Made by a program: the position numbers and the translations under genes
The notes under the pieces: model-generated
What the model was told of the DNA's origin: nothing
What the model saw: the letters and a program-made list of their open reading frames with translations, nothing else
Database searches by the model: none
Shown: piece by piece, positions 3,949-28,219 of the stretch
Layout of the letters: each line of letters begins with the position of its first letter
Position numbering within the stretch: the first letter of the stretch is position 1
Assembly (NCBI GenBank): GCA_964387285.1
Contig: CAYLWO010000002.1
Span: forward strand, 4,070 to 68,069
DNA length: 64,000 bases
Source: an uncultured Cytophagia bacterium
GTDB lineage: Bacteria > Zhuqueibacterota > Zhuqueibacteria > Residuimicrobiales > Residuimicrobiaceae
Reading direction: 5' to 3'

Positions 3949-3960
3949 ACAACTTCTCCT

Positions 3961-4659: not shown

Positions 4660-4660
4660 G

Positions 4661-12534: not shown

Positions 12535-12607
12535 TCAATTTCCCATTTGTTTACCATCCACAAAAACCTTGCTTGTTATGGATATTTTAAATACTTTGCA
12601 AGGTTGA

Positions 12608-13708
12608 ATGGAAGCGTTAATGATCCTTGCATCTTTTATTGCTTTACTACTCTATGCCGGCATATTGCTCTGGCTGTACTTTGGCCTGGAGCGTCGTCAA
12701 CCACAGGCGCCTGTGCAGAAAGAAAAAATAACTGTTATCATTGCCGTGCGCAATCGCCGCGAAGAATTGCTGCGCTGTCTGCAAGCCTTGGCCAATCAGG
12801 AATATGACCGCCCTTACAACGTTATTATCGTAGACGATCATTCGACAGACGGTACGTTTGAAATCACAGAACAGTTTCTCCAACACCATTCAGACTGGCG
12901 AATCATTCATGCCGAGTCTTCATCCGCATGCGCCAGTTCGAAAAGAGCCGCTTTACATCAAGCTATTCTACAAGCAGAAGGCGAATGGCTAGTCTTTACG
13001 GATGCGGATTGTATTCCCCCAGTCACATGGTTGTCCGGCTTGAGCGGGTATTTTTCAGCAGAGACGGTTTTGGTGGCAGGATTTTCTCCGCAAGTCAGCG
13101 CCGGAAAAAGCGGGTGGAGCAACGTACTGCTTATCGATAGTCTATCCGCGGCACTGGTATCTGCAGCGACCATTGGCCGACAATACGGCGTTACCGGCGT
13201 TGGCCGCAACCTAGCCTATCGTCGCTCAGCTTGGAACAAAATTTCCGGATTTGACGCCTTGCCGGATACCTTGTCCGGGGATGATGATTTTATCATTCAG
13301 GAATTAAGTCGGCACGGTCGCGTACAGTATTGTCTGTCCCCGGAAGCGGTCGTCCCGGCACAAGGACCGTCTGACCTGCGTGAATTTTTGTGGCAAAAAC
13401 AGCGCCATCTTTCCAGCGGGCAATTTTATCCACTGCCGGCTAAAATTGCTTATAGCGCTTATCACAGTACAAACTTGCTGCTCTGGCCGCTCTTTTTCTT
13501 CGGTCTATGGAATCACTGGCTATTTTATCCTCTTTTGTGCAAATGGGTGCTCGACTTTTATGTTCTCCAGGACCTGGCAAAACGGTTGCAGCAGAAAATA
13601 CGCTGCCTGCCTTTTTTGATTTGGCAGGGAATTTTTGTATTTTATAACATCCGGGCAGGCTGGCAGCGATTTCGACCTCCGCCCACCTGGCAGGCAGATG
13701 GACCGTGA
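12608..13708 (+). CDS. Membrane GT2 glycosyltransferase, ceramide-glucosyltransferase/HpnI-like (GT21-like) paralog 1
   Basis: N-TM, VIIAVRNRREEL...VIIVDDHSTDGT (D1/D2), FTDADC, SGDDDF (D3), QKQRH (QxxRW-like) and C-terminal TM helices. Confidence 0.75.
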   Translation: MEALMILASFIALLLYAGILLWLYFGLERRQPQAPVQKEKITVIIAVRNRREELLRCLQALANQEYDRPYNVIIVDDHSTDGTFEITEQFLQHHSDWRIIHAESSSACASSKRAALHQAILQAEGEWLVFTDADCIPPVTWLSGLSGYFSAETVLVAGFSPQVSAGKSGWSNVLLIDSLSAALVSAATIGRQYGVTGVGRNLAYRRSAWNKISGFDALPDTLSGDDDFIIQELSRHGRVQYCLSPEAVVPAQGPSDLREFLWQKQRHLSSGQFYPLPAKIAYSAYHSTNLLLWPLFFFGLWNHWLFYPLLCKWVLDFYVLQDLAKRLQQKIRCLPFLIWQGIFVFYNIRAGWQRFRPPPTWQADGP

Positions 13709-14511
13709 GAAAAAAAATTAACGAAATACTGTGGTCCGAATATCAGGCTGCGATGCTGCATCGCGGCTGGTTAATTGCCGAAATTTTAGAAAAACGACTC
13801 GATTTAGCCGGCGCCCGAATAGCGGATTTGGGATGCGGCCATGGCGGCGCATCGCTGCAACTAGCCGAACGAGGGGCAGTTGTGGCCGCAGTCGATCGTC
13901 GAGCAGATACGGCAGCGCAACTCCAGGAGATGGCGCAAAAGAAAAAACTGACCGTTACCGTTCATGCTGCCGACATAGAAACCTGGCAGCCGCAAACTCC
14001 TGTGGATGCTGTTGTGCTGTGGGATGTACTGGAACATATTGCCCATCCCTTACTGCTGTTGCAGCATATCCGACGATTTCTCAAACCGAAAGGATTTTTA
14101 CTTTTGGCTACGCCGAATAAATGGTCACCGCTCAATCTGCTCTGCGATCCGCACTATAGTTTGCCCGGTATAGCTTGCTGCAAACGCACCCGTGTCTATA
14201 AAATCGTCGTGCAACGCTTGCATTGGTTTGCACCGGAGAAAACAGATATTGCACAATTAATTTCCTGGCGTGAATTACACGCCCTTTTACATGGCGCCGG
14301 TTTTAATTATGACTGGGTGGTTAAAGAGGTCTCAGAACTGGCTCTACAGAATCCGGCCAGCATATGGAACCGGCCTTGGCATTTACGATTGATTCACCTG
14401 ATAATGAACATGCGTCTGTCGCGCATCGTTCTCTCTGCGGCGCCGAAAAAACCGGGCTTGCTTAACCAAAGGCTTTTACCGACCTTTTATGTGCTGGCGA
14501 GTAAACGGTGA
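13705..14511 (+). CDS. Class I SAM-dependent methyltransferase
   Basis: Motif I DLGCGHGGASLQLA, post-I acidic VDRRAD, motif II VDAVVLWDVLEH. GTG start overlaps the upstream stop (GTGA). Confidence 0.75.
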   Translation: MRKKINEILWSEYQAAMLHRGWLIAEILEKRLDLAGARIADLGCGHGGASLQLAERGAVVAAVDRRADTAAQLQEMAQKKKLTVTVHAADIETWQPQTPVDAVVLWDVLEHIAHPLLLLQHIRRFLKPKGFLLLATPNKWSPLNLLCDPHYSLPGIACCKRTRVYKIVVQRLHWFAPEKTDIAQLISWRELHALLHGAGFNYDWVVKEVSELALQNPASIWNRPWHLRLIHLIMNMRLSRIVLSAAPKKPGLLNQRLLPTFYVLASKR

Positions 14512-15518
14512 AAGAACTTCCGATCAGAGCAATATTGAAAAGCATCACACGGTATCGCCTGAATAATGCGTTAAAACTGAGCGCCGGCTTTATTTTTTCA
14601 AAATTGCTGGGTTATCCATTTGTTTGGGGCCAGCCTTTTGTGGTGACGATAGAGCCAACCAATCTCTGCAATCTGGCCTGTCCACAGTGCGCGGTCGGCG
14701 CCGGAGTCTTGACGCGCCCTCGCGGCCAAATGCCGCTGGATCTCTATCGTGACATTTTAGAACAGATGCATCGTTCCCTCTGCTATTTACTGCTATACGA
14801 TCAGGGCGAACCGCTGTTGCATACGGACTATTGCGAAATGATTCGATTAGCAAAAGCCAAAAACATGGCCGTCACCTGCAGCAGCAACGGTCAATTGCTT
14901 GGCGATAAAGATATAGCCCGTTGCCTGGTCGCTTCCGGGCTGGACAACCTGATTATCTCCATCGACGGTTTGACGGAACAAACGTACCAAACCTATCGAA
15001 AAGGCGGGCAACTGTCTAAAGCAATCCAGGCAATCAAAAATGTTCAACAGGCTCGAAGCATTCTCAAAACAAAAACACCGCGAATTTGCGTTCAATTTCT
15101 GGTTACAAAACATAATGAAACCGAATTGCCGCACCTGGCTGAAGCGGTTCGCGACTGGGGGGCTGATCTACTGCTGATAAAAAGCATGCAGATTTGCACA
15201 CCGGCTGATGCTGAACAGTGGCTGCCGCGGCAGGAAAAATATCGCCGGTATCGAACCCGGAACAATCAACTGGTTACAAAAAAAAGAAACCGCATATGCC
15301 CCCGCTTGTGGTACAGCAGCGTCATACATCAGGACGGCAGCGTGGTGGCTTGTTGCTTTGACAAAGACAATCAATTCGTTCTCGGCCGCATGACCGAGAC
15401 GCCGTTTACACAACTCTGGCACGGTTCCGCTTTACAGGCATTGCGTACGGCTGTGCTGAATAAAACCAAACCAAATTTATGTAGAAATTGCACAAATGGA
15501 CTGGCGCTTTACAAATAA
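14508..15518 (+). CDS. Radical SAM protein, MoaA/HpnH-like with Cys-rich C-terminal (SPASM/twitch-like) domain, paralog 1
   Basis: EPTNLCNLACPQC (Cx3Cx2C) and GEPLLH. C-term CPRLW...VVACCFD...LCRNC. The GTGA overlap with the upstream gene indicates coupling. Confidence 0.7.
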   Translation: MKELPIRAILKSITRYRLNNALKLSAGFIFSKLLGYPFVWGQPFVVTIEPTNLCNLACPQCAVGAGVLTRPRGQMPLDLYRDILEQMHRSLCYLLLYDQGEPLLHTDYCEMIRLAKAKNMAVTCSSNGQLLGDKDIARCLVASGLDNLIISIDGLTEQTYQTYRKGGQLSKAIQAIKNVQQARSILKTKTPRICVQFLVTKHNETELPHLAEAVRDWGADLLLIKSMQICTPADAEQWLPRQEKYRRYRTRNNQLVTKKRNRICPRLWYSSVIHQDGSVVACCFDKDNQFVLGRMTETPFTQLWHGSALQALRTAVLNKTKPNLCRNCTNGLALYK

Positions 15519-16470
15519 AAAAACCGTCATCTTTTGGATCAAAGGCGTGATTGCCGTTTGCGTTCTCGCACTTTTGGTGCGGCGCATCAGTTGGCGCGCT
15601 CTGCTGGAGGCTGTATATCAGGCGCAGGCAGAATGGATTATCGCAGCGGCCCTTTTATTGATTCCCAATATTTTTTGTCAGTTTAAACGCTGGCAACTCA
15701 TCACCCGACAGCTCCATCCGGATACGTCGAATCCGGTGGTGGCGCGTTCTCTTTTTGCCGGCATCACTCTCGGTTTTATCACGCCCGGCCGCATCGGCGA
15801 TCTGGGGCGAACGATTTTTATTCCACAGGCCAATTGGCTTGGATTGGTCGGTTTGATGTTGGTGGAAAAATGGTATAGCCTGCTGATCATTTACTGGTTC
15901 GGCTTATTAGGCATCATTCCCATCCTGTCGACCGCGTTTAAACTGGAACTGTGGATCCCGGCCGTGCTGACCGGACTGATTATGATTTTGGCCGGCATCA
16001 GCCTGGTGTTGCATCCGGGATTTTTAAATTATATTCTCAAACGCTTCGACAAAGCGAGAAAAAGAAAACGACTGCATCAGGTCTTTGCCGGCATCAATGC
16101 CTTGACGCCAAAATTGTCCCTCCAGCTTTTGCTTTATACCCTGATACAGGTCCTCGTTTATTTCGGACAATTCTACCTTCTCGTGAGAGCATTTACCCCC
16201 TTGCCGCTCTTGCGGGGCTTGGCAGCCGTCGCGGCGATCATGTGGAGTAAAACCCTGCTGCCCATTTCTCTAGGCGATCTGGGCGTGCGTGAAAGCGCAG
16301 CCGTTTATTTCCTCGGCAAATTGCATACGCCCGCAGCCGTTGCGTTTGACAGCGCCTTACTCTTGTTCGCCATCAATATTTTACTGCCGGCCATTATCGG
16401 CTTTGTGGTATTGCTGCAGAGTCGAATCTTGCAAAATGGGCCCGGTAAAACCATGAGGTCACGGTGCTGA
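15496..16470 (+). CDS. Flippase-like integral membrane protein (lysylphosphatidylglycerol-synthase TM-region / UPF0104 family)
   Basis: About 8 predicted TM helices. Conserved FITPGRIGDLGRT motif. 23-nt overlap with the upstream gene. Confidence 0.6.
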   Translation: MDWRFTNKKTVIFWIKGVIAVCVLALLVRRISWRALLEAVYQAQAEWIIAAALLLIPNIFCQFKRWQLITRQLHPDTSNPVVARSLFAGITLGFITPGRIGDLGRTIFIPQANWLGLVGLMLVEKWYSLLIIYWFGLLGIIPILSTAFKLELWIPAVLTGLIMILAGISLVLHPGFLNYILKRFDKARKRKRLHQVFAGINALTPKLSLQLLLYTLIQVLVYFGQFYLLVRAFTPLPLLRGLAAVAAIMWSKTLLPISLGDLGVRESAAVYFLGKLHTPAAVAFDSALLLFAINILLPAIIGFVVLLQSRILQNGPGKTMRSRC

Positions 16471-17579
16471 TATATTATCTCGTTATTTCTCTAGTATACA
16501 TTTTATTTATCGCCTGGATATACAAGGGGATTCAGCAGTTAAATGAACAAAAGGTAAATTTTCAACAACCGATTGTCAATGTCATCGTTCCAGCGCGCAA
16601 TGAAGCCGCAAATCTTGCCGAATGTCTAACGCATTTAAAGCAACAGAGTTATCCGGCACATCGTTACGAAATCATCGTCGTCGATGACGGCTCTGTTGAT
16701 GAAACAGGCAGGATAGCAAAAGAGCAGGGCGTTCGCTGCCTGACTCTGGATGTTATTCCCAAGGGCTGGTCGCCCAAAAAGGCCGCCCTGGCCCTGGCGA
16801 TCCGCAACAGCAATGCAGAAATTATTCTAACCACCGATGCGGATTGCCGTGCGCCGCGGGAATGGATCGAATCCATGATCCGTCATTTCACGGCCGATGT
16901 CGGCGTTGTGGCTTCGTGGGTTGGGATTGCCGAAACAGGCTCCTTGCTGGCGCGTTTAGAAGCTCTGGATACGCTTTCGTATCAAATGATTGGCGCTGCG
17001 GCCATCGGACACGGAAAACCTTTTTTGGCTAACGGCGCCAATTGGGGGTACAGACGCGAGCTTTATGCTGAGGTCAACGGCTTTAGCGGCATCGAATCAT
17101 TGGCCTCCGGCGACGATGATCTGTTACTGCAAAAAATGGCGCAAAACGGCAAATGGCGCGCAGCCTTCAGCAACGAATCAAGCACGCGCCTTATCACCAA
17201 AAGCTGCACGTCCTGGTCCGGCTTTTTCATGCAGCGCCTGCGCTGGGCTTCCAAGAGCCATCGTTATCCGCTATCCGTTATTCTTTTGGAAGGATTTATT
17301 TTTATTTACCATTCTTCCCTGTGGTTGGTATTGGTCTTAAAAATTAACTCGCCGCTCTGGTTTTTATTTCTTCTGGTTAAACTGGTCAGCGATGCTCTAT
17401 TGGTTCGCACGGTGATGCAAAACATCAATTTTAAATTTCACTGCTTCGATATGCTGCTGGCCCAGATCGGACAGATGATTTACACGGTTATCCTCGGCTT
17501 GCTGGCGTGGCGCGGCCGCTTTGTCTGGAAAAATCGTGTTTATAATCGCGGTACGCTGGTTGAAGAAAAAAGGGTTTGA
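16464..17579 (+). CDS. Membrane GT2 glycosyltransferase, GT21-like paralog 2
   Basis: VNVIVPARNEAANL, IIVVDDGSVDET, TTDADC, SGDDDLL, QRLRWASK and C-terminal TMs. GTG start overlaps the upstream stop. Confidence 0.75.
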   Translation: MLIYYLVISLVYILFIAWIYKGIQQLNEQKVNFQQPIVNVIVPARNEAANLAECLTHLKQQSYPAHRYEIIVVDDGSVDETGRIAKEQGVRCLTLDVIPKGWSPKKAALALAIRNSNAEIILTTDADCRAPREWIESMIRHFTADVGVVASWVGIAETGSLLARLEALDTLSYQMIGAAAIGHGKPFLANGANWGYRRELYAEVNGFSGIESLASGDDDLLLQKMAQNGKWRAAFSNESSTRLITKSCTSWSGFFMQRLRWASKSHRYPLSVILLEGFIFIYHSSLWLVLVLKINSPLWFLFLLVKLVSDALLVRTVMQNINFKFHCFDMLLAQIGQMIYTVILGLLAWRGRFVWKNRVYNRGTLVEEKRV

Positions 17580-17638
17580 AAAAAAGCTCTTGTTTGATAT
17601 ATTTAGCTGAATGGCACGATAGGCGCCCGCAAAACAAC

Positions 17639-17666
17639 CTTGCGAAGGTTTAGAGCCTTCGCCAAG
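17639..17666. terminator. REP-like palindromic hairpin (family C/D copy 1), possible internal terminator/attenuator
   Basis: cttgcgaaggtttagagccttcgccaag is a near-perfect inverted repeat, about 60 nt after the GT2 paralog 2 stop. It is near-identical to 51447-51474. No strong T-run follows. Confidence 0.4.
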
Positions 17667-17725
17667 ATAATACAATCGTTCAGTTCTGGTAAATAATATT
17701 TTGACACCCGTTTTGGGATTATCGA

Positions 17726-19288
17726 ATGAAACACATTCTTGCCATAACCATCATTTCATATTCGCTGCTCTTTTCGGCCCCCCCCAGTTCCGTGAATGTG
17801 CCGAATGACTATTGGGGATATGGTTTTCTGGAACGTATGGAAACCAAGGGACTGTTGAAAAGTTACCAGCTTTGTACCCGCCCTGTTTCGCGTACGATCT
17901 TTGCCGAACTGTTGCGGCAGACGACAGAACAATTGCAGCGCAATGCCGCAATTCTGAGCAAAACGGATCAGCAATTGCTCGAGCAGCTCCAGGGCGATTT
18001 TTACGATGAACTGCATCCTGTCTCATCCGAGCGCGGTCCCGAACGCCATTTTACCAGTTGGAAAGAAGGGCAAAGCCGTTTGCATATCGATCTGTATGGC
18101 AAACAGTCCATCATCTCCAATCGTGGCCAGCAATATGAAACCAGCGAGTTGATCTCTGAAACCTCTCTCGGCGCCATCCTGCGCGGCTCGCTCAGCAACA
18201 CCATCGGATTTTATCTGGATGCGCGCAATGCACTCACCCGCGGCAAGGATGAAATATTGGAAGAAAATTTCGATCCGTCTCAGGGCTCGCCGGTGGTGAT
18301 TTCCGGTTCAAACGTTTTTCAGGATCGCGCGCTCGCTTACTGGACCTGGCAGAATGCCTGGCTGCGCCTGCAAATGGGCCGTGACGAATTGCAATGGGGA
18401 CCGGGATATCATGCCGGTCTTTCCATCTCCGGCAACATGCCGGCAACAGAAATGATCCGCCTCAGCGCCTCCTTTCGTCGTTTTAAATTCAGCTACATTC
18501 ACGCCTTTCTGCGCAGCAGTCTCGGCCCTAAATATCTGGCCGGTCATCGCCTGGATTACATGGTCAAACCCGGCCTCTATTTCGGCGCATCGGAAACGGT
18601 TATTTATGGCCAACGCGACGTCGAGTTCGCCTATCTCAATCCCATCATGCCGATTCATGTCGCGCAACACCATCTGGGCGACAAGGACAACAAGACCATG
18701 AGTTTGGATGCGACCTGCACGCTGGTCCGCAACTGCAAACTGTATCTGGAATATTTCATCGACGACATGACCAGCAGTGAGAGTTTGACCAAATTCTACG
18801 GCAACAAATTCGCCTTTCTGACCGGAATTCTTTGGACCGATCCGTTGCATATCGCCAATACCGATCTTCGCTGCGAATACTCGCACGTCGAGCCGTACGT
18901 CTATACACACTGGGATTCCATCAACATCTACACCAACTATGACCAGATCATCGGCCACTGGTTGGGGCCTAATGCAGACTGTCTCTTCATACAGGCCGGC
19001 TGGCAACCTTTGCGCGATTTTCGCGTCGAGTTTTTTTGGGAACAGCAGCGCAACGGCGCCGGCAACGCGGACACGCGCACCAGACCTGAACAAGGCATGA
19101 CCAAGCAATTTTTGGGCGGCGTGGTGGAAAAGAAAAAAATGATCGGTTTAAAACTGGTCGAACAGATACGTCGCGATATGTTTGCCTCAGTCAGTTATAC
19201 CTACTGTGATACCCGCAACCTGCATCGCCAGGCTGGTAAAACCTCCTTTGATCATCTGGCCCGCTTTGAATTCTGGTTAAATTATTGA
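17726..19288 (+). CDS. Outer-membrane beta-barrel protein, possibly Wzi-like capsule/glycan anchoring family
   Basis: Signal peptide MKHILAITIISYSLLFSA. N-terminal helical region PNDYWGYGFLERMETKGLL. Aromatic-rich amphipathic strands. C-terminal ...FEFWLNY. Confidence 0.45.
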   Translation: MKHILAITIISYSLLFSAPPSSVNVPNDYWGYGFLERMETKGLLKSYQLCTRPVSRTIFAELLRQTTEQLQRNAAILSKTDQQLLEQLQGDFYDELHPVSSERGPERHFTSWKEGQSRLHIDLYGKQSIISNRGQQYETSELISETSLGAILRGSLSNTIGFYLDARNALTRGKDEILEENFDPSQGSPVVISGSNVFQDRALAYWTWQNAWLRLQMGRDELQWGPGYHAGLSISGNMPATEMIRLSASFRRFKFSYIHAFLRSSLGPKYLAGHRLDYMVKPGLYFGASETVIYGQRDVEFAYLNPIMPIHVAQHHLGDKDNKTMSLDATCTLVRNCKLYLEYFIDDMTSSESLTKFYGNKFAFLTGILWTDPLHIANTDLRCEYSHVEPYVYTHWDSINIYTNYDQIIGHWLGPNADCLFIQAGWQPLRDFRVEFFWEQQRNGAGNADTRTRPEQGMTKQFLGGVVEKKKMIGLKLVEQIRRDMFASVSYTYCDTRNLHRQAGKTSFDHLARFEFWLNY

Positions 19289-19295
19289 TCCGGCC

Positions 19296-20411
19296 TTGAT
19301 AATAATTTTCTACATAACCTGCGGAATGACGGCCATTTACGGCTTGTGCCTCATACTGTTCTCCCTGGGATTGCTGCGCAGGCAGAACAAAAGTGTATTA
19401 CAACCCTTTGTTTCTGTAATTGTAGCTTGTCGCAATGAACAGGAAAATATTACACCCCTGTTGCATGCCTTGACCCGGCAAAATTACCCATCTACGCGCT
19501 TTGAAATTGTCCTGGCCAATGACGCCTCTACAGACGAAACAGGGCAACGGATCAGCGCTTTTTTTAAGACCAATCCCAGTGTTGCTATTAAAAAAATCTC
19601 CGTGCAGAACCGCGATCAGGCGGCTTCGCCCAAAAAAAATGCGCTGAGTCAGGCGATTGCATTTTCTACAGGAGAGGTGCTGCTTTTTACAGATGCCGAT
19701 TGTCGGCCAGGCCCGGACTGGATCGCAAGTATCGTCCAATATTTCTCGCCAGATGTTGGCATGGTTATCGGTTTCTCGCCGTATGAATTGCCTTCGCTGC
19801 AGGGCATTGGGCAACGATTGCTGGCCATAGAGTCCCTATCCCTCGCAGCTCTGGCTGCCGGCACAACCGGATGGGGACGGCCGGCCACCTGTACCGGTCG
19901 CAATCTCGCCTATCGCAGAAAAGTTTATGATGAATTGGGCGGATTCAAGGAAATTGCGCAATTTGTATCCGGCGACGACGATTTGTTTTTAAAACTGGTC
20001 GTGCAACGCACGCGCTATCGGGTAAGATACGCGTTGGACAGCCGCGCGGTTGTGCCGACTCTAATTTTGACAAATGGCCGGCATTTTTTTCAACAACGTT
20101 TGCGCCACGCTTCCAAAGGTTTTCACTATGGCTGGCGCATGACCTCTGTGCTGGCCGGCGCCTGGTTGTACAATTTTTTGTTGTTGGGATTGCTGTTAAC
20201 TCCGTGGCGCGGATATGCCATTATGCTTTTCCTGGTAAAAGCCTTTTCAGAATTACCGCTCCTGCTGGGTTTTGCAGCAAAAATGAACAGAGTATCCTAT
20301 TTTACCGTTTGGCCGTTGGCTGCTTTTTTGCATATTTGTTACGTCGTGGTCATTGGCGCATTGGGACCGTTCCTGAAATTCAATTGGAAAGAGATCAGGG
20401 TTCATTCATGA
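19296..20411 (+). CDS. Membrane GT2 glycosyltransferase, GT21-like paralog 3
   Basis: VSVIVACRNEQENI, FTDADC, SGDDDLF, QQRLRH and C-terminal TMs. Confidence 0.75.
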   Translation: MIIIFYITCGMTAIYGLCLILFSLGLLRRQNKSVLQPFVSVIVACRNEQENITPLLHALTRQNYPSTRFEIVLANDASTDETGQRISAFFKTNPSVAIKKISVQNRDQAASPKKNALSQAIAFSTGEVLLFTDADCRPGPDWIASIVQYFSPDVGMVIGFSPYELPSLQGIGQRLLAIESLSLAALAAGTTGWGRPATCTGRNLAYRRKVYDELGGFKEIAQFVSGDDDLFLKLVVQRTRYRVRYALDSRAVVPTLILTNGRHFFQQRLRHASKGFHYGWRMTSVLAGAWLYNFLLLGLLLTPWRGYAIMLFLVKAFSELPLLLGFAAKMNRVSYFTVWPLAAFLHICYVVVIGALGPFLKFNWKEIRVHS

Positions 20412-21556
20412 TTGGCTTGTCCTACATCGTCCTGGCGTTGACGATTGTTTACGGAATAATCCTTCTGGTCTTTATTGTTGCGCTACGCTTTCCGAGTAAG
20501 GCAAACAGCCCTTTGCAGCCGCGTGTTTCCATCATTGTTGCTGCGCGCAACGAAGAAGCCAACATTGCCGCGCTGCTGGAGGATTTGGTGCAGCAGGATT
20601 ATCCGGCTGAATATGAAATCATTATCGCCAACGACGGTTCAACCGATGGCACGGCTCATCTGGTCAACGGGTTTTGCACCCGCTTTGCCAATATCCATCT
20701 ACTCAATATCGATGAGGCGCCGGCAGGATTCAGTCCGAAAAAATATGCCTTACAATGCGCAGTGGAAAAATCAACCGGCGAGATCATTCTGGCCACGGAC
20801 GCAGATTGTCGCGTGGGACCGGGCTGGATTTCCGGCATGGTTGCTTATTTTGCGCCCGAGGTGGGTTTTGTTATCGGTTTTTCGCAATATGGCAGACCGG
20901 GGCAAAAACAAAAACTGGTGGAACGGTTTCAAGCGTTCGATTTTGTCACGCTCATGGCTGTGGCAGCGGCCAGTACGCATCTGCGCATTCCCATGGCAGC
21001 CTCGGGACAAAATCTGGGCTATCGTCGCGCCGCGTTCATTCAGGTGGACGGCTATCGTTCCATCAGCCATCGCATGTCCGGCGACGATGTCCTACTCATG
21101 CAATTGATTCGCCGTCGCACGGATTATCGTATTTTATACGCTTCGGACCCGCGCACGTATGCTGTGTCAGCGCCGCAACCCACCTGGCCCGCTTTTATCA
21201 ATCAACGCAACCGCTGGGCCTCTAATGGCGGCTATCAATTGCTGTTGAGCCCCTTGTTCTTTAGCTATCTGGTTTTCACCTTTTCCTATAATTTGGCGCT
21301 GCTGCTTGGCCTCTCACTTTACGGCGCCGGTGTTCTTGGCGGATGGGGCATGCCGCTCTGCTTTCTGGCCAAAGGATTTTTTGAATTTTGTGTGGCTTGT
21401 AGCGGTTGCAGATATTTTCAGCGATCTGATCTGCTGAAATATTTTCCTCTGTGGTTTCTACTGCAGATTCCCTATATTGTTCTGGTCGGCGCCATGGGTT
21501 CTTTGGGATTATTTCGCTGGAAGGGCCGCAAAGGCGCGACAAGGATCCGGGCATAG
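20408..21556 (+). CDS. Membrane GT2 glycosyltransferase, GT21-like paralog 4
   Basis: Start ATG overlaps the paralog 3 stop (ATGA). VSIIVAARNEEANI, ATDADC, SGDDVLL, NQRNRWAS. The longer ORF from 20204 was rejected because it overlaps the paralog 3 coding region. Confidence 0.7.
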   Translation: MIGLSYIVLALTIVYGIILLVFIVALRFPSKANSPLQPRVSIIVAARNEEANIAALLEDLVQQDYPAEYEIIIANDGSTDGTAHLVNGFCTRFANIHLLNIDEAPAGFSPKKYALQCAVEKSTGEIILATDADCRVGPGWISGMVAYFAPEVGFVIGFSQYGRPGQKQKLVERFQAFDFVTLMAVAAASTHLRIPMAASGQNLGYRRAAFIQVDGYRSISHRMSGDDVLLMQLIRRRTDYRILYASDPRTYAVSAPQPTWPAFINQRNRWASNGGYQLLLSPLFFSYLVFTFSYNLALLLGLSLYGAGVLGGWGMPLCFLAKGFFEFCVACSGCRYFQRSDLLKYFPLWFLLQIPYIVLVGAMGSLGLFRWKGRKGATRIRA

Positions 21557-22076
21557 CCAAAGGCTGTTTATTTTTTTTCGTTATAATAATAAATGACGTT
21601 CAATGATGCTGTAAGAAATTTATGATCTATTCCCCCATAGTCGCCCAGATGTTTGATGCGACCGGCGAAGTTCTTTTGCACCTGCATCTCGATGCCAATC
21701 TTGTTAAATCTATATCCTGCCGCTAAAATAAAACCGGTAAAGCAAGATAAGCTTCAGCCCAATCCGCATTTACAATCTGTGACCAGTTGCTATAATATGC
21801 CGTTCTATTTTCCACTCTGGCTCCGCGTAGTAGAATTTCCATCCCATAGACCAGCGAAAGGTATTTTTTTGCAAACTCTCGACGCCTATGCCCATGGAAT
21901 ACCTTAATAGTGGTTTGGAAGAGGTGTCGTAAAATTTGGAGCAATTAACGCTGCCGGAAATAAAAAGGGCGAGCCGGCTCGGGTTTCAGAAAAACGAAGC
22001 AACATCAGGAATAGAAACAAAATGCTTTCTAAAACCGTCTGAAAACCGTAAATTCTGCACTGATTTGAGGAAGAGC

Positions 22077-23132
22077 ATGAGCGCACCGATACAGCTGCTA
22101 AACAATCTGTTACATCGCCGGCCGGTCAACTCGAGCACGGAAATCCGTCTGACCCGCCTGTGCACGCAACGCTGCCGGCAGTGTCGCGTTTACGAACGGG
22201 AAACCCAGCCGGCCAGCATGAGTCTGGAACAATTTCAAATGATCCGGCGGCGGTTGCGTGAATACGGTGCCTGGCTCGGCTTTATCTCCGGCGGCGAAGC
22301 GTTGCTGGCGCCGGATCTGTTGCCCATCCTGGCAGAGGCGAAAAAGACCTTTCGCTGCGCCACCACCCTGGTCACAGGGCTTTACCATCAACGTCAACGG
22401 GTATTGGAAGCGGCCGAGTTTTGCCTGGCAAACAATATCAACATCCAGACCTCCATGGACGGCATCGGCCCTGTGGGTAATTACTTGCGCGGCGTCAAGA
22501 ATTTTAGCGATACCGTGCTGGAGCATATGGCCTTAATCAGCGCCATGAAAAAAAATTCTCAATCGCTGCTCTACGCAAACATTGTGCTCAACAACCTGAA
22601 TCGCAACCAGGTTCCGGATCTGATCCGGCGCTGCCGCGGCCTGGGTTGGCGCGTCACCATCGGCCTGTATCACAACCTTACCGAGACCACACGCAGAGAC
22701 GACGAGTTGCGTATTACACCGGATGAACAACTTGATCAACTGCTGGCTTTTCTGGATCACAATCCGGATATTTTGAATTTAAATTCATTCATTCGCGGCA
22801 TCGGCCCGTTTTTACGCAGCGGGAAAACGACACGTTGTCCCTTTGTCGCCGGCCGCATCTGGATGACGCGCACCACCATCATGGAAAACGGCGACCTGCA
22901 TCTGTGTTGGGGCGGCCCCATCGGCAATCTTTTCTCCTCTTCCCTGCGGGAAATATTCCACAGCTCCGTTTATACCGACCGCCTGGCTGCTTACGACCGC
23001 TGTGCCGGCTGTTGGACCACCTGCTACACGCAACGGCTGTTGCTCTTGCGTCCTCGCTCCCTGACCGAATTACGAGACAACATCGTCAAGATGATCCACC
23101 TGCGTCGTTATCAACAGGAGCGGCCGGCGTGA
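22077..23132 (+). CDS. Radical SAM protein with Cys-rich C-terminal domain, paralog 2
   Basis: RLCTQRCRQC (Cx3Cx2C), ISGGEALL. C-term CPFVAG...LHLCWGG...CAGCWTTC. Start chosen at the ATG preceded by GAGGAAGAG. The ORF-track start at 21936 lacks an RBS. Confidence 0.65.
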   Translation: MSAPIQLLNNLLHRRPVNSSTEIRLTRLCTQRCRQCRVYERETQPASMSLEQFQMIRRRLREYGAWLGFISGGEALLAPDLLPILAEAKKTFRCATTLVTGLYHQRQRVLEAAEFCLANNINIQTSMDGIGPVGNYLRGVKNFSDTVLEHMALISAMKKNSQSLLYANIVLNNLNRNQVPDLIRRCRGLGWRVTIGLYHNLTETTRRDDELRITPDEQLDQLLAFLDHNPDILNLNSFIRGIGPFLRSGKTTRCPFVAGRIWMTRTTIMENGDLHLCWGGPIGNLFSSSLREIFHSSVYTDRLAAYDRCAGCWTTCYTQRLLLLRPRSLTELRDNIVKMIHLRRYQQERPA

Positions 23133-23899
23133 AAAAATTTTTATTTCTTTTACTGATCGCCGGCGTAGCCGGCAGTGGTGAAAAAGTGCGATTCATCGGC
23201 CATGCTGATTTAAATCGATTTATTGGCGAACAACTGGATTTCTCCTTGTCCTTGCGCGGGGTCAGCGCAGCCAAGGCGCGCATGCTTTGCGACACCCTCG
23301 GTATCGACCGCTGGCTTATCTCAGCCGACATATCGACAAAATTCTGGGCTGATCTGGTTTTCCCAGTGCACAATATTTACCAGACCTTTCTCGATCGCCG
23401 CGACGGCCGCACTGCAGAGACCTATAAAAAAATCAAACAAAAAAATCTTGGCCAGGAGATGCATGTCGTTTTTGATTATAAACAAAAGCAGGCGACCGGT
23501 TATTCGGATGGCAGCCGCACCATTCGCGATTCCCTGCAAACCCTCTTTGCCATGCTCTATCACTTGCGCGCCATGGATTTGTCTTTACATGATTCTGTCT
23601 TCTGTTTATTGGAAATTGAATCACAGTGGTGGCAAGTAGCCGGGAAAGTCAGACAGGGAGAAAAAACCACCGGACCTTTTTCTCGTCTCGAGGTCCGCGA
23701 TGTGGTGCTTACTTTTTCCCCTCACGGCGCGGTTGTTGCCCGTCCCTGGAAAACCGATTTGCTGACCAATCGCATTGCCCGCAGCGGCCGGTTGCTCATC
23801 CGGCTGGGGCCTGCGCCGGAGAATTTGCCAATATGGATACAGATCGGCGAGGCCAAACAGACCGTGACGCTCAAATTGAACAGCTGTAAAAAGGTGTAA
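23129..23899 (+). CDS. Secreted hypothetical protein (possibly DUF3108-like)
   Basis: GTG start overlapping the upstream stop (GTGA). Signal peptide VKKFLFLLLIAGVAGSG. About 256 aa, no catalytic motif recognised. Confidence 0.4.
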   Translation: MKKFLFLLLIAGVAGSGEKVRFIGHADLNRFIGEQLDFSLSLRGVSAAKARMLCDTLGIDRWLISADISTKFWADLVFPVHNIYQTFLDRRDGRTAETYKKIKQKNLGQEMHVVFDYKQKQATGYSDGSRTIRDSLQTLFAMLYHLRAMDLSLHDSVFCLLEIESQWWQVAGKVRQGEKTTGPFSRLEVRDVVLTFSPHGAVVARPWKTDLLTNRIARSGRLLIRLGPAPENLPIWIQIGEAKQTVTLKLNSCKKV

Positions 23900-23902
23900 T
23901 GC

Positions 23903-25030
23903 ATGGTCACGCTCATCCATATATTTTGCGCCATCCTCTATCTTTTAGTAGGCATCGCTATCCTGTTGCTGCTGAAAAAAAGCTGGCCACAAAAAAAGTC
24001 TGTGGAACCGGTTCTGGCCTCTGTCATCATTGCCGGACGCAATGAAGCGCCGCATTGGCCGGCCTGTTTGGACGCTTTGGCAAATTTGGATTATCCGACG
24101 GACAAATTGGAAATCATCCTGGTTGACGATGCCTCCCGCGATCACTCCTTGTCGCTTTTGCGTGCGTTTGCGCAACAGCGTCCGTTTGTACGCGTCATCT
24201 CCCTTTCTGTGGAAGCGAAAGAATTGGCCGGCAAGGCCGGCGCGGTTTTGCCGGCCATCGAATCCAGCAAGGGCGAAATTATCTTTGTCACGGATGCCGA
24301 TTGTCAAGTTCCGCAAAACTGGATTTTAAGTCACCTTTCCTTCTTTACTGATGAGGTGGGATTGGTCGGCGGCCTGACTTTGCTGGATCAACCGCGTCAC
24401 AAGTATGGCGCTTTTCAGCGTATCCAATCCCTGGATTGGTTGTTCCTGCTGTCGGTCGCCTTTGCGGCCGGCCGTATCGGCAGACCCCTGAGTTGGATGG
24501 GCAACAACATGGCCTTTCGTCGCACAGCGTATCACGCGGTGGGCGGCTATCGTTCGCTGGCCAGCCATTTAATCGAAGATTTCAGTCTGATGGACGCGAT
24601 GGTCCGGCAGACTCCGTGGCGGGTTGTTTTACACACCCAGGCCTCGGCCATGGTGCTAAGCTGCGCTGAAAAAACCGTGACCGGGCTTTATCGACAGCGT
24701 CGGCGTTGGGCCCTGGGCGTACGACCGGTGCGCCTGTTGGGTAAAGGCTTGTTGTCGGTTTTTTATATCAGCCACATGCTGGTTTGGTTGGCGTTGGTTT
24801 GCAGCCAGACAACAGGATGGCTGCTATTTATCGTCATCCTCGCAACAGATGCAGCCATTCTGATCACAGCTGCCGGACCGATCAACCGGCATGATCTGTT
24901 GAAATGGCTGCCTAGCTTGCAATTGTATTATTTCCTGGCAATCTTGTTGCTGCCGCCGATTCTTTTATTCGATAAAAAAATCATCTGGAAGGACAAGGTC
25001 TACCATTCAATGGATCAAAGTGTCCGCTGA
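23903..25030 (+). CDS. Membrane GT2 glycosyltransferase, GT21-like paralog 5 (divergent D3 motif EDF)
   Basis: ASVIIAGRNEAPHW, IILVDDASRDH, VTDADC, LIEDFSLMDAM (resembles the AEDYF region of ceramide glucosyltransferase), RQRRRWALG, C-terminal TMs. Confidence 0.75.
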   Translation: MVTLIHIFCAILYLLVGIAILLLLKKSWPQKKSVEPVLASVIIAGRNEAPHWPACLDALANLDYPTDKLEIILVDDASRDHSLSLLRAFAQQRPFVRVISLSVEAKELAGKAGAVLPAIESSKGEIIFVTDADCQVPQNWILSHLSFFTDEVGLVGGLTLLDQPRHKYGAFQRIQSLDWLFLLSVAFAAGRIGRPLSWMGNNMAFRRTAYHAVGGYRSLASHLIEDFSLMDAMVRQTPWRVVLHTQASAMVLSCAEKTVTGLYRQRRRWALGVRPVRLLGKGLLSVFYISHMLVWLALVCSQTTGWLLFIVILATDAAILITAAGPINRHDLLKWLPSLQLYYFLAILLLPPILLFDKKIIWKDKVYHSMDQSVR

Positions 25031-25073
25031 TAACAACCTGGTTGTCTAGTGCGTATTTAAGCCGGAATCGATC

Positions 25074-26075
25074 ATGTCGCTTTTGCCGCCGCTTTTGCTG
25101 CATTATTATATTACTTATCGTTGCAATTGTCGCTGTCGTTTTTGCGAAATCTGGCAAATGAATGATCCCGCAGAAGCTGATCCGGCAGTTGTCCGGCTGC
25201 GCCTACGGCAGGCCAAACAGCTCGGCGTCCGCTTTGTGGATTTCACCGGCGGTGAACCGTTACTGCATCCTGATCTGCCGGATATGTTGAAAGCGGCCCA
25301 AGAGCTGGGCCTTAAAACCACCATCACCACCAACGCAGCGCTTTATCCACAACGGGCCGGCGAGTTGGCAGGTTTGGTGGATTTTTTGCATTTCTCCCTG
25401 GATGCTGCTGAGGCTGATATGCATAATCGCTTGCGCGGCGCTATCATTTTTGACACCGTTGTAGAGAGCCTGGATATTGCTCGAGCTCTGGGCGAACGAC
25501 CTGATATCACCTTTACCGCTAATGAAGAGAACCTCTCGCAACTTGCCTTGTTATCGCAAGTTGCAGAAGCGCTTGCGCTGGTGCTTGTGGTCAATCCGGT
25601 ATTTGGTCAAGAGGCACTTTCAGAGCAAGCTCTGAACTATATCGAGCAGTATAAACAACATCCTTACGTCTATATCAATCCAGCCTTTCACCGTTTGCGC
25701 AGAAGGGGCGGCAATCAAACAGATCATCCCCGTTGTCGCGTCATGGATGCGGTGATCGTCATTCTGCCGGATGATCAACTGGCTGTTCCCTGTTTTCATT
25801 TCAATCAGACGCGACGCCCCATTTCCCATTTAAAGGTCATGCAAGACGAAAAGTGGTTTAAAGATATCAAAAGGCAACAGGGAAAATTTCCGACTTGTCA
25901 GGGGTGTGTGCTGAACTGTTATTTTGATCCATCTTTTCTTTATGTTCCGGATTTACTGTTTTATGAAAGCATGCAAGCGAAATTACGCTACGCCTGGCTC
26001 AAATATCTGAAACCGGATCAGAAACCAACGCAATCGGCGGGCAAACTGTTTTCTCAACTGGTCAACAAACCATGA
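25074..26075 (+). CDS. Radical SAM protein with Cys-rich C-terminal domain, paralog 3
   Basis: YRCNCRCRFC (Cx3Cx2C), FTGGEPLLHPDL. C-term CRVMDAV...VPCFHF...CQGCVLNC. Confidence 0.7.
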   Translation: MSLLPPLLLHYYITYRCNCRCRFCEIWQMNDPAEADPAVVRLRLRQAKQLGVRFVDFTGGEPLLHPDLPDMLKAAQELGLKTTITTNAALYPQRAGELAGLVDFLHFSLDAAEADMHNRLRGAIIFDTVVESLDIARALGERPDITFTANEENLSQLALLSQVAEALALVLVVNPVFGQEALSEQALNYIEQYKQHPYVYINPAFHRLRRRGGNQTDHPRCRVMDAVIVILPDDQLAVPCFHFNQTRRPISHLKVMQDEKWFKDIKRQQGKFPTCQGCVLNCYFDPSFLYVPDLLFYESMQAKLRYAWLKYLKPDQKPTQSAGKLFSQLVNKP

Positions 26076-27661
26076 ATCCCTTCGCTCTCGCGGCCAACAT
26101 CGTTTTTCCGTTCCTGTTATACGCGGAAACCCATTATCGCATTCCGGGGATTCCCAGCCGTTTATTTAAACGGGAACCGGAAATTTTAATCGATGTGCCG
26201 CATCGCGTGCAAGAGGGGCGTGCTGTGCCGGTTTTATTGATCATCAAAGACAGCGACCGATTCCCTGTTTTGCTGGAGAAACTGCATATTTTTATTGATG
26301 GCCGCGAATTTGTCTTTAATGAAAACCAAAAAATTCAACAAAAGTTTTGGCATAAAATTTATTATATCCAACCGGGAAATAACCTGTCCGGTGAAATAAG
26401 CGTCAACGCCAAAATCGAACTCGTCATCAACCAAAGGCATTGCCTGGTCCACAATGACAATTTTCATACTGCCGGTCACAAGCCGTTTCAAGTAGCGTTG
26501 GATGATCAACCTTTGCCGGGATCAGAGTTTTGCAGCTGGGCTGATATGCATTGCCACAGTTGCTACACGAACGATCAGATGGAATTCGGTCCGCCCCTGA
26601 CCGGGATCAAAGCCATGTCCGACGCCATTGGCCTGCGCGCTGCGGCGGTCACGGACCACTCTTATGATCTGGACGATTTGCCGGATAATTATCTGATTAA
26701 TGATCCGCAGACAGTAAAGTGGTACGCGCTTCTACAGGAGGTTGAACGTCTGAACCAGGCGCCCGGCCCTGTATTGATTCCGGGAGAAGAGCTTTCTGTC
26801 GGCAATTGTAAAGAACGCAATGTACACCTGTTGATTCTGAACGACCCGGATTTTTATCACGGCACGGGCGATTCAGGAGAAAAATGGCTGAAAACGAAAC
26901 CGCAAACCTTCATCCCATATCTCTTAGCGCACCTGTCTCCGCAGGCAGCGGCGTTTGCCGCTCATCCCAAAGCTTTGCCGCCCTGGCCGCAACGCTGGTT
27001 GTTGGGCCGCGATCAATGGCATGATCAGGATTGTGCGCAGCCCGGATTACATGGACTGCAAATCTGGAACGGCGAAGGGGCTGCCGGTTTCGAGCAGGGT
27101 TTGGCGAGTTGGATTAGACAGCTGCTCGACGGCCGATCATTGACCATCATCGGCGGCAATGACAGTCATGGCGATTTCAATCGCGTACGGCACATCAAAA
27201 TTCCCTTCTGGTCAATTTTAGAAAGTACGCACCATGTTTTTGGCTGCGTGCGCACCGGCTTGTTGACCCGGACGGCAACAACTACGAACCAATTTGTGCA
27301 AGCACTGCGAAAAGGTCATTGCATCATCAGCAACGGCCCTTTTGCCCAACTCGTGATTGCCGGAAAAAGCAGCGGGGAAACGGTGCAGGAAAAGAATCCG
27401 CCGCTGTTACTCCGCGCCAGTTCAACCCCCAACTTTGGTTTTCTGCAGCACATGGATATTTATATCGGCGACCAGCAAAAAAAACAGGAGGTCAAACGGA
27501 CCATAGCCGCGCCTCCTGCATGTCTGCATTTCGAGCGAAATATAAACGACCTGTCTTTGCCGCAACAAGGGTATGTGCGTTTACAGGTTTTCACTGAAAA
27601 GGATGGTCGCTCCTACCAATGCCTCACCAATCCCGTTTATCTTTCTCTTAAAACAATTTGA
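26072..27661 (+). CDS. PHP-domain-like metal-dependent phosphoesterase (putative)
   Basis: ATGA overlap with the upstream radical SAM gene. Candidate PHP motifs DMHCHS, AVTDHS, HLLILND, GGNDSHGD. 529 aa. The assignment is tentative. Confidence 0.4.
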   Translation: MNPFALAANIVFPFLLYAETHYRIPGIPSRLFKREPEILIDVPHRVQEGRAVPVLLIIKDSDRFPVLLEKLHIFIDGREFVFNENQKIQQKFWHKIYYIQPGNNLSGEISVNAKIELVINQRHCLVHNDNFHTAGHKPFQVALDDQPLPGSEFCSWADMHCHSCYTNDQMEFGPPLTGIKAMSDAIGLRAAAVTDHSYDLDDLPDNYLINDPQTVKWYALLQEVERLNQAPGPVLIPGEELSVGNCKERNVHLLILNDPDFYHGTGDSGEKWLKTKPQTFIPYLLAHLSPQAAAFAAHPKALPPWPQRWLLGRDQWHDQDCAQPGLHGLQIWNGEGAAGFEQGLASWIRQLLDGRSLTIIGGNDSHGDFNRVRHIKIPFWSILESTHHVFGCVRTGLLTRTATTTNQFVQALRKGHCIISNGPFAQLVIAGKSSGETVQEKNPPLLLRASSTPNFGFLQHMDIYIGDQQKKQEVKRTIAAPPACLHFERNINDLSLPQQGYVRLQVFTEKDGRSYQCLTNPVYLSLKTI

Positions 27662-28133
27662 TTTTCTTCATGATTCTTTTCAAACCGCGACCGAAAATTT
27701 CCGGCTCGAGCTCAATATGCCGGTCGTCCCCTTCGCCGTAAGAGATGGCTTTGATCGCTTCATTGTCCTTCAGAGCCTCATGAATGATGAATCGTTCATA
27801 ACTGCTCATGTGCGGCAAGATCACTTTTTGTCCGCTCTGCATGGCCTCTTCGGCCTTTTTCTCGGCATACCTGCGCAAATTACCTACCGGATACAGACGC
27901 AATTCGTACTGATCCTCGCCGATGCGATAGGTTTTAGTAGCCACATTGGGGTCTTTGTCAAACTCGCGATGAATCTGTTTGCGTTCAAAAGCATTCAGCA
28001 GGGTCAGGGAAATGGGAACAATGGAATCGCACAAATCCTCACGCACTTTGGCGATCAATCGCACCATTTTACCGTCCATCTCTTTGCCACGCTCTCTTTT
28101 CTCATCAAAACGTCTGCGCGTTCTTTTTTCCAT
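27648..28133 (-). CDS. Jag/KhpB-like RNA-binding protein (KH + R3H domains)
   Basis: R3H motif ILPHMSSYERFIIHEAL. Confidence 0.6.
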   Translation of the reverse strand: MEKRTRRRFDEKRERGKEMDGKMVRLIAKVREDLCDSIVPISLTLLNAFERKQIHREFDKDPNVATKTYRIGEDQYELRLYPVGNLRRYAEKKAEEAMQSGQKVILPHMSSYERFIIHEALKDNEAIKAISYGEGDDRHIELEPEIFGRGLKRIMKKIKLF

Positions 28134-28167
28134 ACAAAACGACCTCTCTCATAGGGGTAAATTCATC

Positions 28168-28213
28168 ATCTTTTCTGTCAGGGGCGCGCTAAACGCGCCT
28201 CTGCAGAAAAGAT
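28168..28213. other. Long nested palindromic hairpin between jag-like and mpl
   Basis: atcttttctgtcaggggcgcgctaaacgcgcctctgcagaaaagat has outer arms atcttttctg(t)cag/ctgcagaaaagat and inner arms ggcgcg/cgcgcc. Confidence 0.4.
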
Positions 28214-28219
28214 GTTTTG

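Follow-up and report, generated by a model that had tools for sequence, protein, structure and literature searches.

What would a bacterium build with five membrane glycosyltransferases (GTs) and three radical S-adenosylmethionine (SAM) enzymes encoded in a single run of genes? The question is raised by a 64,000-nucleotide stretch of DNA from an uncultured Cytophagia bacterium (contig CAYLWO010000002.1), further called the window, in which positions 12608-27661 of the plus strand comprise 13 back-to-back open reading frames (ORFs), g1 to g13, over about 15 kb. We consider the chances about even that this operon is a cell-envelope locus assembling a lipid-anchored oligosaccharide, i.e., a complex glycolipid or a small lipoglycan. 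Three results favour such a product: the GTs match ceramide glucosyltransferase (UGCG) end to end, a flippase-like gene is coupled to GT genes, and genes for polysaccharide export, polymerization or priming are lacking; Wza/Wzc, Wzx/Wzy, an ABC exporter, a priming phosphoglycosyltransferase and PilZ are all missing among the window ORFs scanned. A multiply glycosylated lipid or lipid-linked glycan with radical SAM tailoring had already been proposed in general terms from the sequence alone (the original prediction), and the colinearity with UGCG, the precedents for PplT proteins and the modular variants of the locus now lend support to that proposal.

In the proposed pathway, five integral-membrane, GT21-like enzymes of family GT2 would add sugars in turn to a membrane lipid at the cytoplasmic face of the inner membrane. 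The phosphoesterase g13, tightly linked to the GT g11, would process a phosphate-containing lipid or intermediate, possibly exposing a hydroxyl group for glycosylation as PlcP does in glycosyl-diacylglycerol synthesis. The methyltransferase g2 and the radical SAM enzymes g3, g9 and g12 would tailor the sugar residues, g4 would flip the glycolipid to the periplasmic leaflet, and g10 and g6 would serve at the outer membrane to receive the product, anchor it or display it. From superfamily-level similarity and gene context, we infer that the acceptor is a lipid, and likewise infer the order of the steps, the substrates, what the radical SAM enzymes catalyse, and what g6, g10 and g13 do. Among described systems, the phosphoesterase PlcP is encoded in an operon with GTs that include a processive di-/tri-glycosyl-diacylglycerol synthase (PMC4796936), and the radical SAM enzymes HpnJ and calditol synthase (Cds) act on lipid-linked sugar head groups (PMC13459092).

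The ORF calls and Pfam searches bear out the thirteen consecutive plus-strand genes of the original prediction, and domain searches agree with its inventory of five GTs, three radical SAM enzymes, a methyltransferase, a UPF0104 protein, a Wzi-like protein, a secreted protein and a PHP-type enzyme. The junctions had been described as mostly 4-nt overlaps, which is too many: such overlaps occur at five of the 12 junctions (g7 and g8, for instance, are joined by an ATGA overlap), two overlaps are longer (23 nt for g3/g4, 7 nt for g4/g5), and gaps of 146, 7, 520, 3 and 43 nt make up the rest. The true starts of g8, g9 and g10 are 20408, 22077 and 23129, and in g1 it is the ATG at 12620, not position 12608, that is conserved as the start. 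Domain scans were read against Pfam gathering scores and NCBIfam equivalog cut-offs. As no cluster enzyme reaches a curated equivalog cut-off, every function is placed at superfamily level only.

Membrane glycosyltransferases and the flippase-like protein

The five membrane GTs are encoded by g1 (12608..13708), g5 (16464..17579), g7 (19296..20411), g8 (20408..21556) and g11 (23903..25030). All match the Pfam family Glycos_transf_2 with 73-89 bits (83 bits for g1) and pass Glyco_transf_21 (PF13506) with 36.3 (g1), 53.9, 52.1, 55.6 and 58.4 bits, compared to a gathering score of 21.7; the first, more generic model gives the higher scores. Each GT has one N-terminal and about three C-terminal hydrophobic segments. 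The predicted D1/D2/D3/QxxRW layout is found in all five, with the quoted motifs TDADC, SGDDD or EDF, and QRxRW, except that g1 and g7 end in QxxRH in place of QxxRW. The last motif reads QKQRH in g1, QRLRW in g5, QRLRH in g7, QRNRW in g8 and QRRRW in g11, the last of which also carries EDF. Since the DxD, acid and QxxR(W/H) motifs are conserved in a distinct version in each of the five GT orthogroups, including that of the variant g1, we argue that five individual enzymes are active, and not a single polymerase.

A profile of 31 GTs from the cluster matches the N-terminal half of many GT2 enzymes in the PDB, but aligns end to end only with ceramide glucosyltransferase (6-372 to 17-381, 73.7 bits). 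BcsA aligns as far as QxxRW (60 bits), while for PcManGT and hyaluronan synthase only part of the catalytic domain is covered, hyaluronan synthase being hardly aligned at all. By their architecture, the five enzymes are probably GT21-like lipid GTs of the ceramide glucosyltransferase kind, and their acceptor would be a lipid. More specific identities were tried and rejected. For HpnI (TIGR03472), the scores of 39.0 (g1), 55.4 (g7), 59.2 (g8) and 80.9 bits (g11) compare to a cut-off of 310, g5 not being among the matches listed; for the poly-N-acetylglucosamine synthase PgaC/IcaA (TIGR03937), 48.6-83.8 bits compare to 422, and no PgaA/B/D partners occur at the locus. Scores for MftF (50-85 bits; cut-off 280) and CruG (25-60 bits; cut-off 600) are similarly low.

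The gene g4 (15496..16470) encodes a membrane protein with about seven hydrophobic segments. It matches LPG_synthase_TM (PF03706) with 80.8 bits (gathering score 33.4) over positions 2-302 of the 302 in the profile, and is predicted to be a full-length PplT/UPF0104 flippase-like protein; HpnL is not matched in NCBIfam. The UPF0104/PplT domain is the lipid flippase domain of MprF. Through the overlaps at both of its ends, g4 is translationally coupled to g3 and to the GT gene g5. Two glycolipid operons proven by experiment, HexSDF (PMC10128005) and GpgSDF (PMC12713373), also include a UPF0104/PplT protein.

Conservation, modularity and the other cluster proteins

Identical proteins occur in only one Logan assembly and one NCBI contig. 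Relatives were collected as 53 loci, from searches anchored on the Wzi-like gene in one-genome-per-species assemblies, and belong to candidate division KSB1 (Zhuqueibacterota), Candidatus Zhuqueibacter and Candidatus Coneutiohabitans. The genome from which the window derives is likewise one of KSB1. In the BLAST map, the order SLT (minus strand), g1 to g13, R3H-MurC-RodZ (minus strand) is found in at least 12 species-level genomes at approximately 40-85% protein identity, so that the synteny looked for in relatives extends to the full g1-g13 order. As this order recurs in many genomes at such identity, the arrangement is not due to chance. The operon is conserved across the phylum KSB1/Zhuqueibacterota, with reduced versions in related candidate phyla of the Fibrobacteres-Chlorobi-Bacteroidetes (FCB) group.

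The variants of the locus are modular. Several lineages (L021, L022, L024 and L026) have an 11-gene form that lacks g3 and g9 and keeps all five GTs, which marks the radical SAM enzymes as dispensable tailoring steps. In the Zhuqueibacter-type loci, the set is reduced to the Wzi-like gene, two GT genes, a radical SAM gene of the g3-like kind and one g13-like gene. Locus L008 has the order GT, methyltransferase, radical SAM, PplT, polysaccharide deacetylase, GT, GT and g13-like, and L067 carries g10-g11-g12-g13 as an isolated unit. A metagenome scan with a g13 profile recovered a frequent form without any radical SAM gene (GT-PplT-GT-GT-g13). The stable core thus consists of GT21-like GTs, the flippase-like protein and the PHP enzyme, while the radical SAM and methyltransferase genes are optional, which is the pattern expected of tailoring enzymes.

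The three radical SAM enzymes, g3 (14508..15518), g9 (22077..23132) and g12 (25074..26075), all pass PF04055 (52.9, 32.2 and 77.5 bits, respectively; gathering score 29.5). SPASM (PF13186) is passed by g3 (51.4 bits) and g9 (22.5 bits) at a gathering score of 21.5 and has no Pfam match in g12; the full seven-Cys SPASM motif is missing in all three. Their Cys-rich C-termini, noted from the start, contain invariant cysteines. In g3, which has a twitch/SPASM auxiliary-cluster domain, these are C54/C58/C61 and C264/C282/C325/C328, the latter four forming a BtrN-like auxiliary pattern; in g9, C29/C33/C36 and C254/C277/C309/C312/C316; and in g12, C17/C21/C24 and C221/C240/C275/C278/C282. The last two share the five-Cys C-terminal pattern C...C...CX2CX3C, and the motifs EPTNLCNLACPQC and GEPLLH quoted earlier for g3 are indeed present. 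With 30% identity over 148 amino acids between g9 and g12, and g3 barely alignable with either, the three are not close paralogues and appear to be only distantly related. An identity as HpnH (TIGR03470) was rejected for g3 (42.2 bits) and g12 (45.8 bits) at an equivalog cut-off of 225, with g9 not listed, and the label 'MoaA-like' of the original prediction comes down to generic similarity in the radical SAM core.

Two of the three distant g3 homologues that were examined are located in glycan gene clusters: one in Paludibacteraceae, in an RpiB/EpsG/GT2 neighbourhood, and one in a Woesearchaeota cluster with UDP-glucose dehydrogenase, an epimerase, DegT, GT2, a deacetylase and PMT_2. In the Latescibacteria locus L066 (4070-5203, 11096-12211), a g12 homologue with 52% identity has a different context, with a pair of URO-D-like genes, another radical SAM gene and a phosphodiesterase gene around it. 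The class I SAM-dependent methyltransferase g2 (13705..14511) matches Methyltransf_23 in Pfam (80 bits) and no NCBIfam family at its cut-off, a NodS/MftM-like match being weak.

The last gene, g13 (26072..27661), encodes 529 amino acids without a Pfam match; the CehA/McbA PHP domain (NF038032) scores 73.9 bits, just below the cut-off of 80. In an AlphaFold2 (AF2) model (pLDDT 91), an N-terminal hydrophobic helix is followed by an Ig-like sandwich, a PHP barrel and a second sandwich. The PHP metal ligands (a His/Asp/Glu set) are all invariant and the N-terminal helix is conserved. By fold and metal-ligand set, g13 is likely a PHP-family metal-dependent phosphoesterase. Among the 55 metagenome loci from the g13 profile scan with enough upstream sequence, a g11-type GT lies immediately upstream of the g13 homologue in 23, and either a g11-type GT or g12 in 34, leaving 21 with neither. 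Hence, of the five GTs, g11 has the closest link to g13. An invariable membership of g13 in the pathway was rejected, as homologues are also found by themselves in unrelated neighbourhoods.

Two secreted proteins complete the set. The Wzi-like outer-membrane protein g6 (17726..19288) is the best conserved protein of the cluster; it has a signal-like N-terminus and matches Caps_assemb_Wzi (PF14052) over residues 207-506 (70.1 bits; gathering score 30.1). The other, g10 (23129..23899), likewise has a signal-like N-terminus and matches DUF3108 (PF11306) with 32 bits at a cut-off of 26. Neither has a sequence match in the PDB, solved Wzi included. DUF3108 has been described as a family of outer-membrane beta-barrels with the YmcC fold (PMC4364669).

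Between the genes, two regions deserve mention. A conserved promoter-like element, CTTGCTTGTTATGGATATTTTAAATACTTTGCA (12567..12600, plus strand), lies just upstream of g1. Its motif CTTGCTTGTTATGGATATTTT(A/G)(A/G)ATACTTTGCA is common to the window, L002, L004 and L006, while the flanking intergenic DNA has diverged. The pattern TTG-N15-21-TAn(n)TTTG has a single site in 12301-28300, compared to about one in shuffled sequence. The element may be an FCB-type promoter, resembling the -33/-7 type of Bacteroidota. The second region is the variable intergenic gap of 520 nt between g8 and g9 (21557..22076), which holds short ORFs on both strands, none of them conserved when compared across related loci. 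A terminator-like hairpin (21553-21567) and a sigma-70-like promoter match (21769-21796) are weak evidence, as scans against shuffled sequences placed promoters within 2 standard deviations and terminators about 2.7 standard deviations above expectation. Only the last 61 nt of the gap are conserved with L002; L006 lacks the gap, and in L004/L005 it carries a gene for a 704-amino-acid secreted GEVED/FlgD_ig protein. Rfam has no match in the whole window at gathering scores and none in the gap at E <= 1.

Upstream of the cluster and divergent from g1, a membrane-anchored SLT lytic transglycosylase is encoded (11770-12534, minus strand). Its gene adjoins all full-length and 11-gene versions (42-87% identity) and is absent from the reduced Zhuqueibacter-type loci. 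The SLT protein may be functionally linked, e.g., if it makes room in the peptidoglycan for an assembly that spans the envelope, or its position may be mere synteny. In L006/L007 (1-7080), genes for PhoU, a PhoB-like regulator, a histidine kinase, a TonB-dependent receptor and a Wzx-like Polysacc_synt protein lie directly upstream of the SLT gene, which may hint at phosphate regulation or a polysaccharide link. Approximately 7 kb upstream of the cluster, the window has a small glycan-related set (2719-5803, minus strand) of an M20 peptidase, a WbqC-like protein and a GT4 glycosyltransferase. The first two are conserved in L002 and L004, and the GT4 in L002 and not in L004. A beta-helix protein is encoded at 6149-8644. 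The reduced clusters L008, L009, L034 and L042 are preceded by an ORF of 65-67 amino acids ending in DGxYYIEL (L008:7752-7949, L009:9544-9747, L034:8142-8342 and L042:8204-8404). It resembles a degenerate half receiver domain and is found neither in the window nor in full-length clusters.

Downstream, the cluster abuts a minus-strand array, UbiA-Dtd-Maf-RodZ-MurC-R3H, headed by a UbiA-family prenyltransferase gene (31597-32439, minus strand). Its product scores 218 bits for PRK12884 (cut-off 269) and 206 bits for archaeal-type digeranylgeranylglyceryl phosphate (DGGGP) synthase (cut-off 296). All related loci whose downstream flank is long enough (L068, L069, L070, L074, L078, L081, L087 and L092) share this synteny of the UbiA gene. 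A URO-D/MtaA-like protein is encoded 5 kb downstream of the cluster (32565-33650, plus strand) and is conserved in L068. Farther away, a radical SAM gene of the spore photoproduct lyase family (46038-48106, minus strand; 104 bits, cut-off 400) adjoins a gene for a protein with a ParB N-terminal domain. Beside a uridine kinase gene, a PNP_UDP_1 gene (50568-51407, plus strand) encodes a purine nucleoside phosphorylase (350 bits; cut-off 218).

Alternative products

Several points weigh against a lipid-anchored product. Besides the equivalog cut-offs, which no cluster enzyme passes, the operon has no lipid-synthesis gene that would identify the acceptor. The top named family of g3 is a W-cofactor oxidoreductase maturase (122 bits; cut-off 380), that of g12 is StsB, nominally a peptide or protein maturase (86 bits; cut-off 625), and the third distant g3 homologue sits in a non-glycan context. 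The link of g13 to the pathway is frequent, not obligatory, in view of its stand-alone homologues. An AF2 model of g11, with the five window paralogues as input, was too poor for the inspection of a channel or lipid groove (pLDDT 62; below 50 in the C-terminal membrane half) and was not used. PgaC, a processive polysaccharide synthase, matches the GTs as well as HpnI does, and the alignment of BcsA to the GT profile runs through QxxRW. Finally, capsule anchoring is, to our knowledge, the sole characterised role of Wzi, and the YmcC fold is tied to group 4 capsule genes; both fit a polysaccharide.

A serious rival, already named in the original prediction, though a less probable one, is that the locus specifies a synthase-type capsule or exopolysaccharide. 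One or more processive, membrane-embedded GT2 enzymes like PgaC, NodC or HasA would then make a polymer, methylated and modified by the radical SAM enzymes, that the Wzi-like lectin and the YmcC-fold protein would hold on the surface. Among NCBIfam families, PgaC_IcaA ranks first or joint first for g5, g7, g8 and g11 (67-84 bits, near full length), the GTs are as similar to PgaC and NodC as to HpnI, and processive GT2 enzymes typically have QxxRW and TED-like motifs. Small processive synthases with four transmembrane segments do exist, NodC and HasA being examples. The family matches of g6 and g10, the polysaccharide deacetylase in L008 and the Wzx-like protein upstream in L006 point in the same direction. 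Yet, the PgaC scores all remain far under the cut-off, and partners of the PgaA/B/D, BcsB/C, PilZ, Wza/Wzc or TPR-porin types are missing among the window ORFs scanned. Five separately conserved GT paralogues would be unusual for a synthase-dependent system, the end-to-end match goes to ceramide glucosyltransferase and not to the synthases, and a lipid-flippase-like protein is translationally coupled to GTs. It is this lipid-side evidence, weighed against the PgaC/NodC-like GTs, the Wzi match and the YmcC fold, that places the glycolipid above the capsule.

Improbable is a pathway in which g3, g9 and g12 act on lipid tails by forming ether or C-C bonds, as Tes, Mss and Ges do, to give glycosylated ether or membrane-spanning lipids, maybe with an isoprenoid anchor. 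The tetraether enzyme GDGT-MAS (Tes) is among the PDB matches of g3 (33 bits) and g12 (23 bits), and Tes is weakly matched by g9 (22.5 bits). The archaeal PTO1314 family is the best full-length NCBIfam neighbour of both g12 (81 bits; cut-off 306) and g9. The DGGGP-synthase-like UbiA gene, 4 kb downstream, is conserved in all loci with enough flank, and bacteria of the FCB group may make archaeal-type ether lipids, though KSB1 is not named there (PMC7852524). These similarities are weak, however, and lie only in the core common to radical SAM enzymes; the UbiA gene belongs to an opposite-strand housekeeping array (Dtd-Maf-RodZ-MurC) and scores under the family cut-offs, and a geranylgeranylglyceryl phosphate synthase was not found among the window ORFs scanned.

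More doubtful still is a role of the radical SAM/SPASM enzymes in maturing a peptide or protein, either a ribosomally made and post-translationally modified peptide (RiPP) or the secreted g6 or g10, that the GTs would then glycosylate. SPASM/twitch enzymes mostly modify peptides or proteins, MftC, StsB, WgkB and ScmF are among the top named matches, MftF and MftM weakly match g1 and g2, and the small ORF ahead of the four reduced clusters is conserved. Nevertheless, its half-receiver-like sequence is missing in the window, and neither the window nor the full-length clusters contain a conserved small ORF, their one sizeable gap being variable and absent in L006. The Pfam scan revealed no RiPP recognition element (RRE) or PqqD domain in g3, g9 or g12, nor is there room for an RRE, because CX3CX2C begins at residues 54, 29 and 17 (N-termini of 16-53 residues). 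A peptidase and an exporter are lacking as well, and all maturase scores are far under their cut-offs. The earlier statement that no precursor peptide is visible thus stands.

Scarcely credible is the lead of the original prediction, in which an adenosylhopane synthase like HpnH and GTs like HpnI would form a hopanoid side-chain pathway: GT21-like GTs with radical SAM and UPF0104 proteins do recall hpnI, hpnJ and hpnL (HpnL being a UPF0104-type membrane protein), as the L008 deacetylase recalls hpnK, but TIGR03470 scores only 42-46 bits against 225 and TIGR03472 39-81 against 310, with PgaC and MftF equalling HpnI, g4 does not match HpnL, shc, hpnG and hpnC-E were not found among the window ORFs scanned, in line with the hopanoid core genes already reported as missing, and the sole PNP-family gene is the ordinary purine nucleoside phosphorylase, with no evidence for HpnG.

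Returning to the lipid-anchored oligosaccharide, a more specific version may be formulated, which we consider speculative and rather improbable. The product would be a signature glycolipid of KSB1 with at most five sugars, maybe on an isoprenoid ether lipid. The radical SAM enzymes would turn some of the sugars into carbocyclic, deoxy, C-C- or ether-linked units by reactions akin to those of calditol synthase or HpnJ, and the YmcC-fold and Wzi-like proteins would form a new export route distinct from Lpt and Wza. The isoprenoid anchor is deemed possible because of the DGGGP-synthase-like UbiA gene conserved nearby. If true, this would mean a new class of bacterial envelope lipid along with a new way of exporting it.

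Relation to described systems

Should the locus indeed make a lipid-anchored oligosaccharide, an uncultured phylum and related FCB-group candidate phyla would invest 15 kb in one conserved envelope glycoconjugate. Five serial GT21-like transferases would result in an unusually elaborate bacterial glycolipid, and three radical SAM tailoring enzymes would have just two loose precedents, HpnJ and calditol synthase. As a consequence of both, the product chemistry is not predictable from known pathways. The product could serve as a lipid biomarker of KSB1 in sediments and digesters, and the roles of PplT flippase-like, Wzi-like and DUF3108 proteins would extend beyond phospholipids and capsules. 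Likewise, three radical SAM families without an assigned reaction would become tractable, with variants holding zero, one or three of the genes as natural controls.

A literature search, which covered a 2026 review on radical SAM enzymes that modify lipids and the paper in which Zhuqueibacterota was defined, revealed no description of this gene set, in agreement with the original prediction. None of the nearest described systems shares more than two to three components with the locus. HexSDF of C. difficile and GpgSDF of P. aeruginosa similarly combine a lipid GT and a stand-alone UPF0104/PplT protein in one operon. Their trio of synthase, deacetylase and UPF0104 protein is fully present in L008, while the window cluster has the GT and UPF0104 protein without the deacetylase. 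However, their synthases are soluble GT4 or MGDG-synthase-type enzymes rather than GT21-like membrane GT2 enzymes, and these three-gene systems add one sugar, with no counterpart of the radical SAM enzymes, the methyltransferase, the outer-membrane protein or the PHP enzyme.

The resemblance to UGCG extends over the full length, with an N-terminal transmembrane segment, a GT-A domain with D1/D2/D3/QxxRW and C-terminal transmembrane segments, but identity is low (74 bits with the profile), and the cluster has five paralogues instead of one. The synthases of PgaABCD, NodBC/NodS and BcsA are membrane GT2 enzymes with QxxRW as well, the NodS/MftM-like match of g2 and the NodB-like deacetylase of L008 adding to the likeness; they differ in that the cluster has no partner proteins or PilZ, five GTs versus one, and scores far under the cut-offs. 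With Wzi, the lectin that anchors the K30 capsule, and with YmcC-fold systems, the cluster has in common that g6 passes the Wzi family of Pfam and that g10 belongs to DUF3108, but Wza/Wzb/Wzc or Gfc partners are absent and g6 does not match solved Wzi. The pairing of a phosphoesterase with a GT recalls Pgt, the processive glycosyl-diacylglycerol synthase of bacteria, whose gene often shares an operon with that of PlcP, with the difference that g13 has a PHP fold and not the PlcP fold.

Among radical SAM enzymes of solved structure, g3 and g12 come closest to BlsE, and the C-terminal auxiliary domain of BtrN matches the C-terminus of g3, all with scores of only 30-54 bits; both BlsE and BtrN modify sugars. 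Cds and HpnJ are radical SAM enzymes acting on lipid head groups; HpnJ binds B12, whereas the radical SAM enzymes of the cluster are twitch/SPASM types. The module hpnI-hpnK-hpnJ(hpnL) follows the same logic, in which a lipid receives a sugar from a GT21-like GT and this sugar, linked to the lipid, is subsequently remodelled by a radical SAM enzyme (PMC13459092), yet the cluster enzymes fail the HpnI and HpnH models by wide margins and the window is devoid of hopanoid core genes. In conclusion, operons for glycolipids or envelope glycans that are tailored by radical SAM enzymes are a kind of system already known, and what is new is this gene content.

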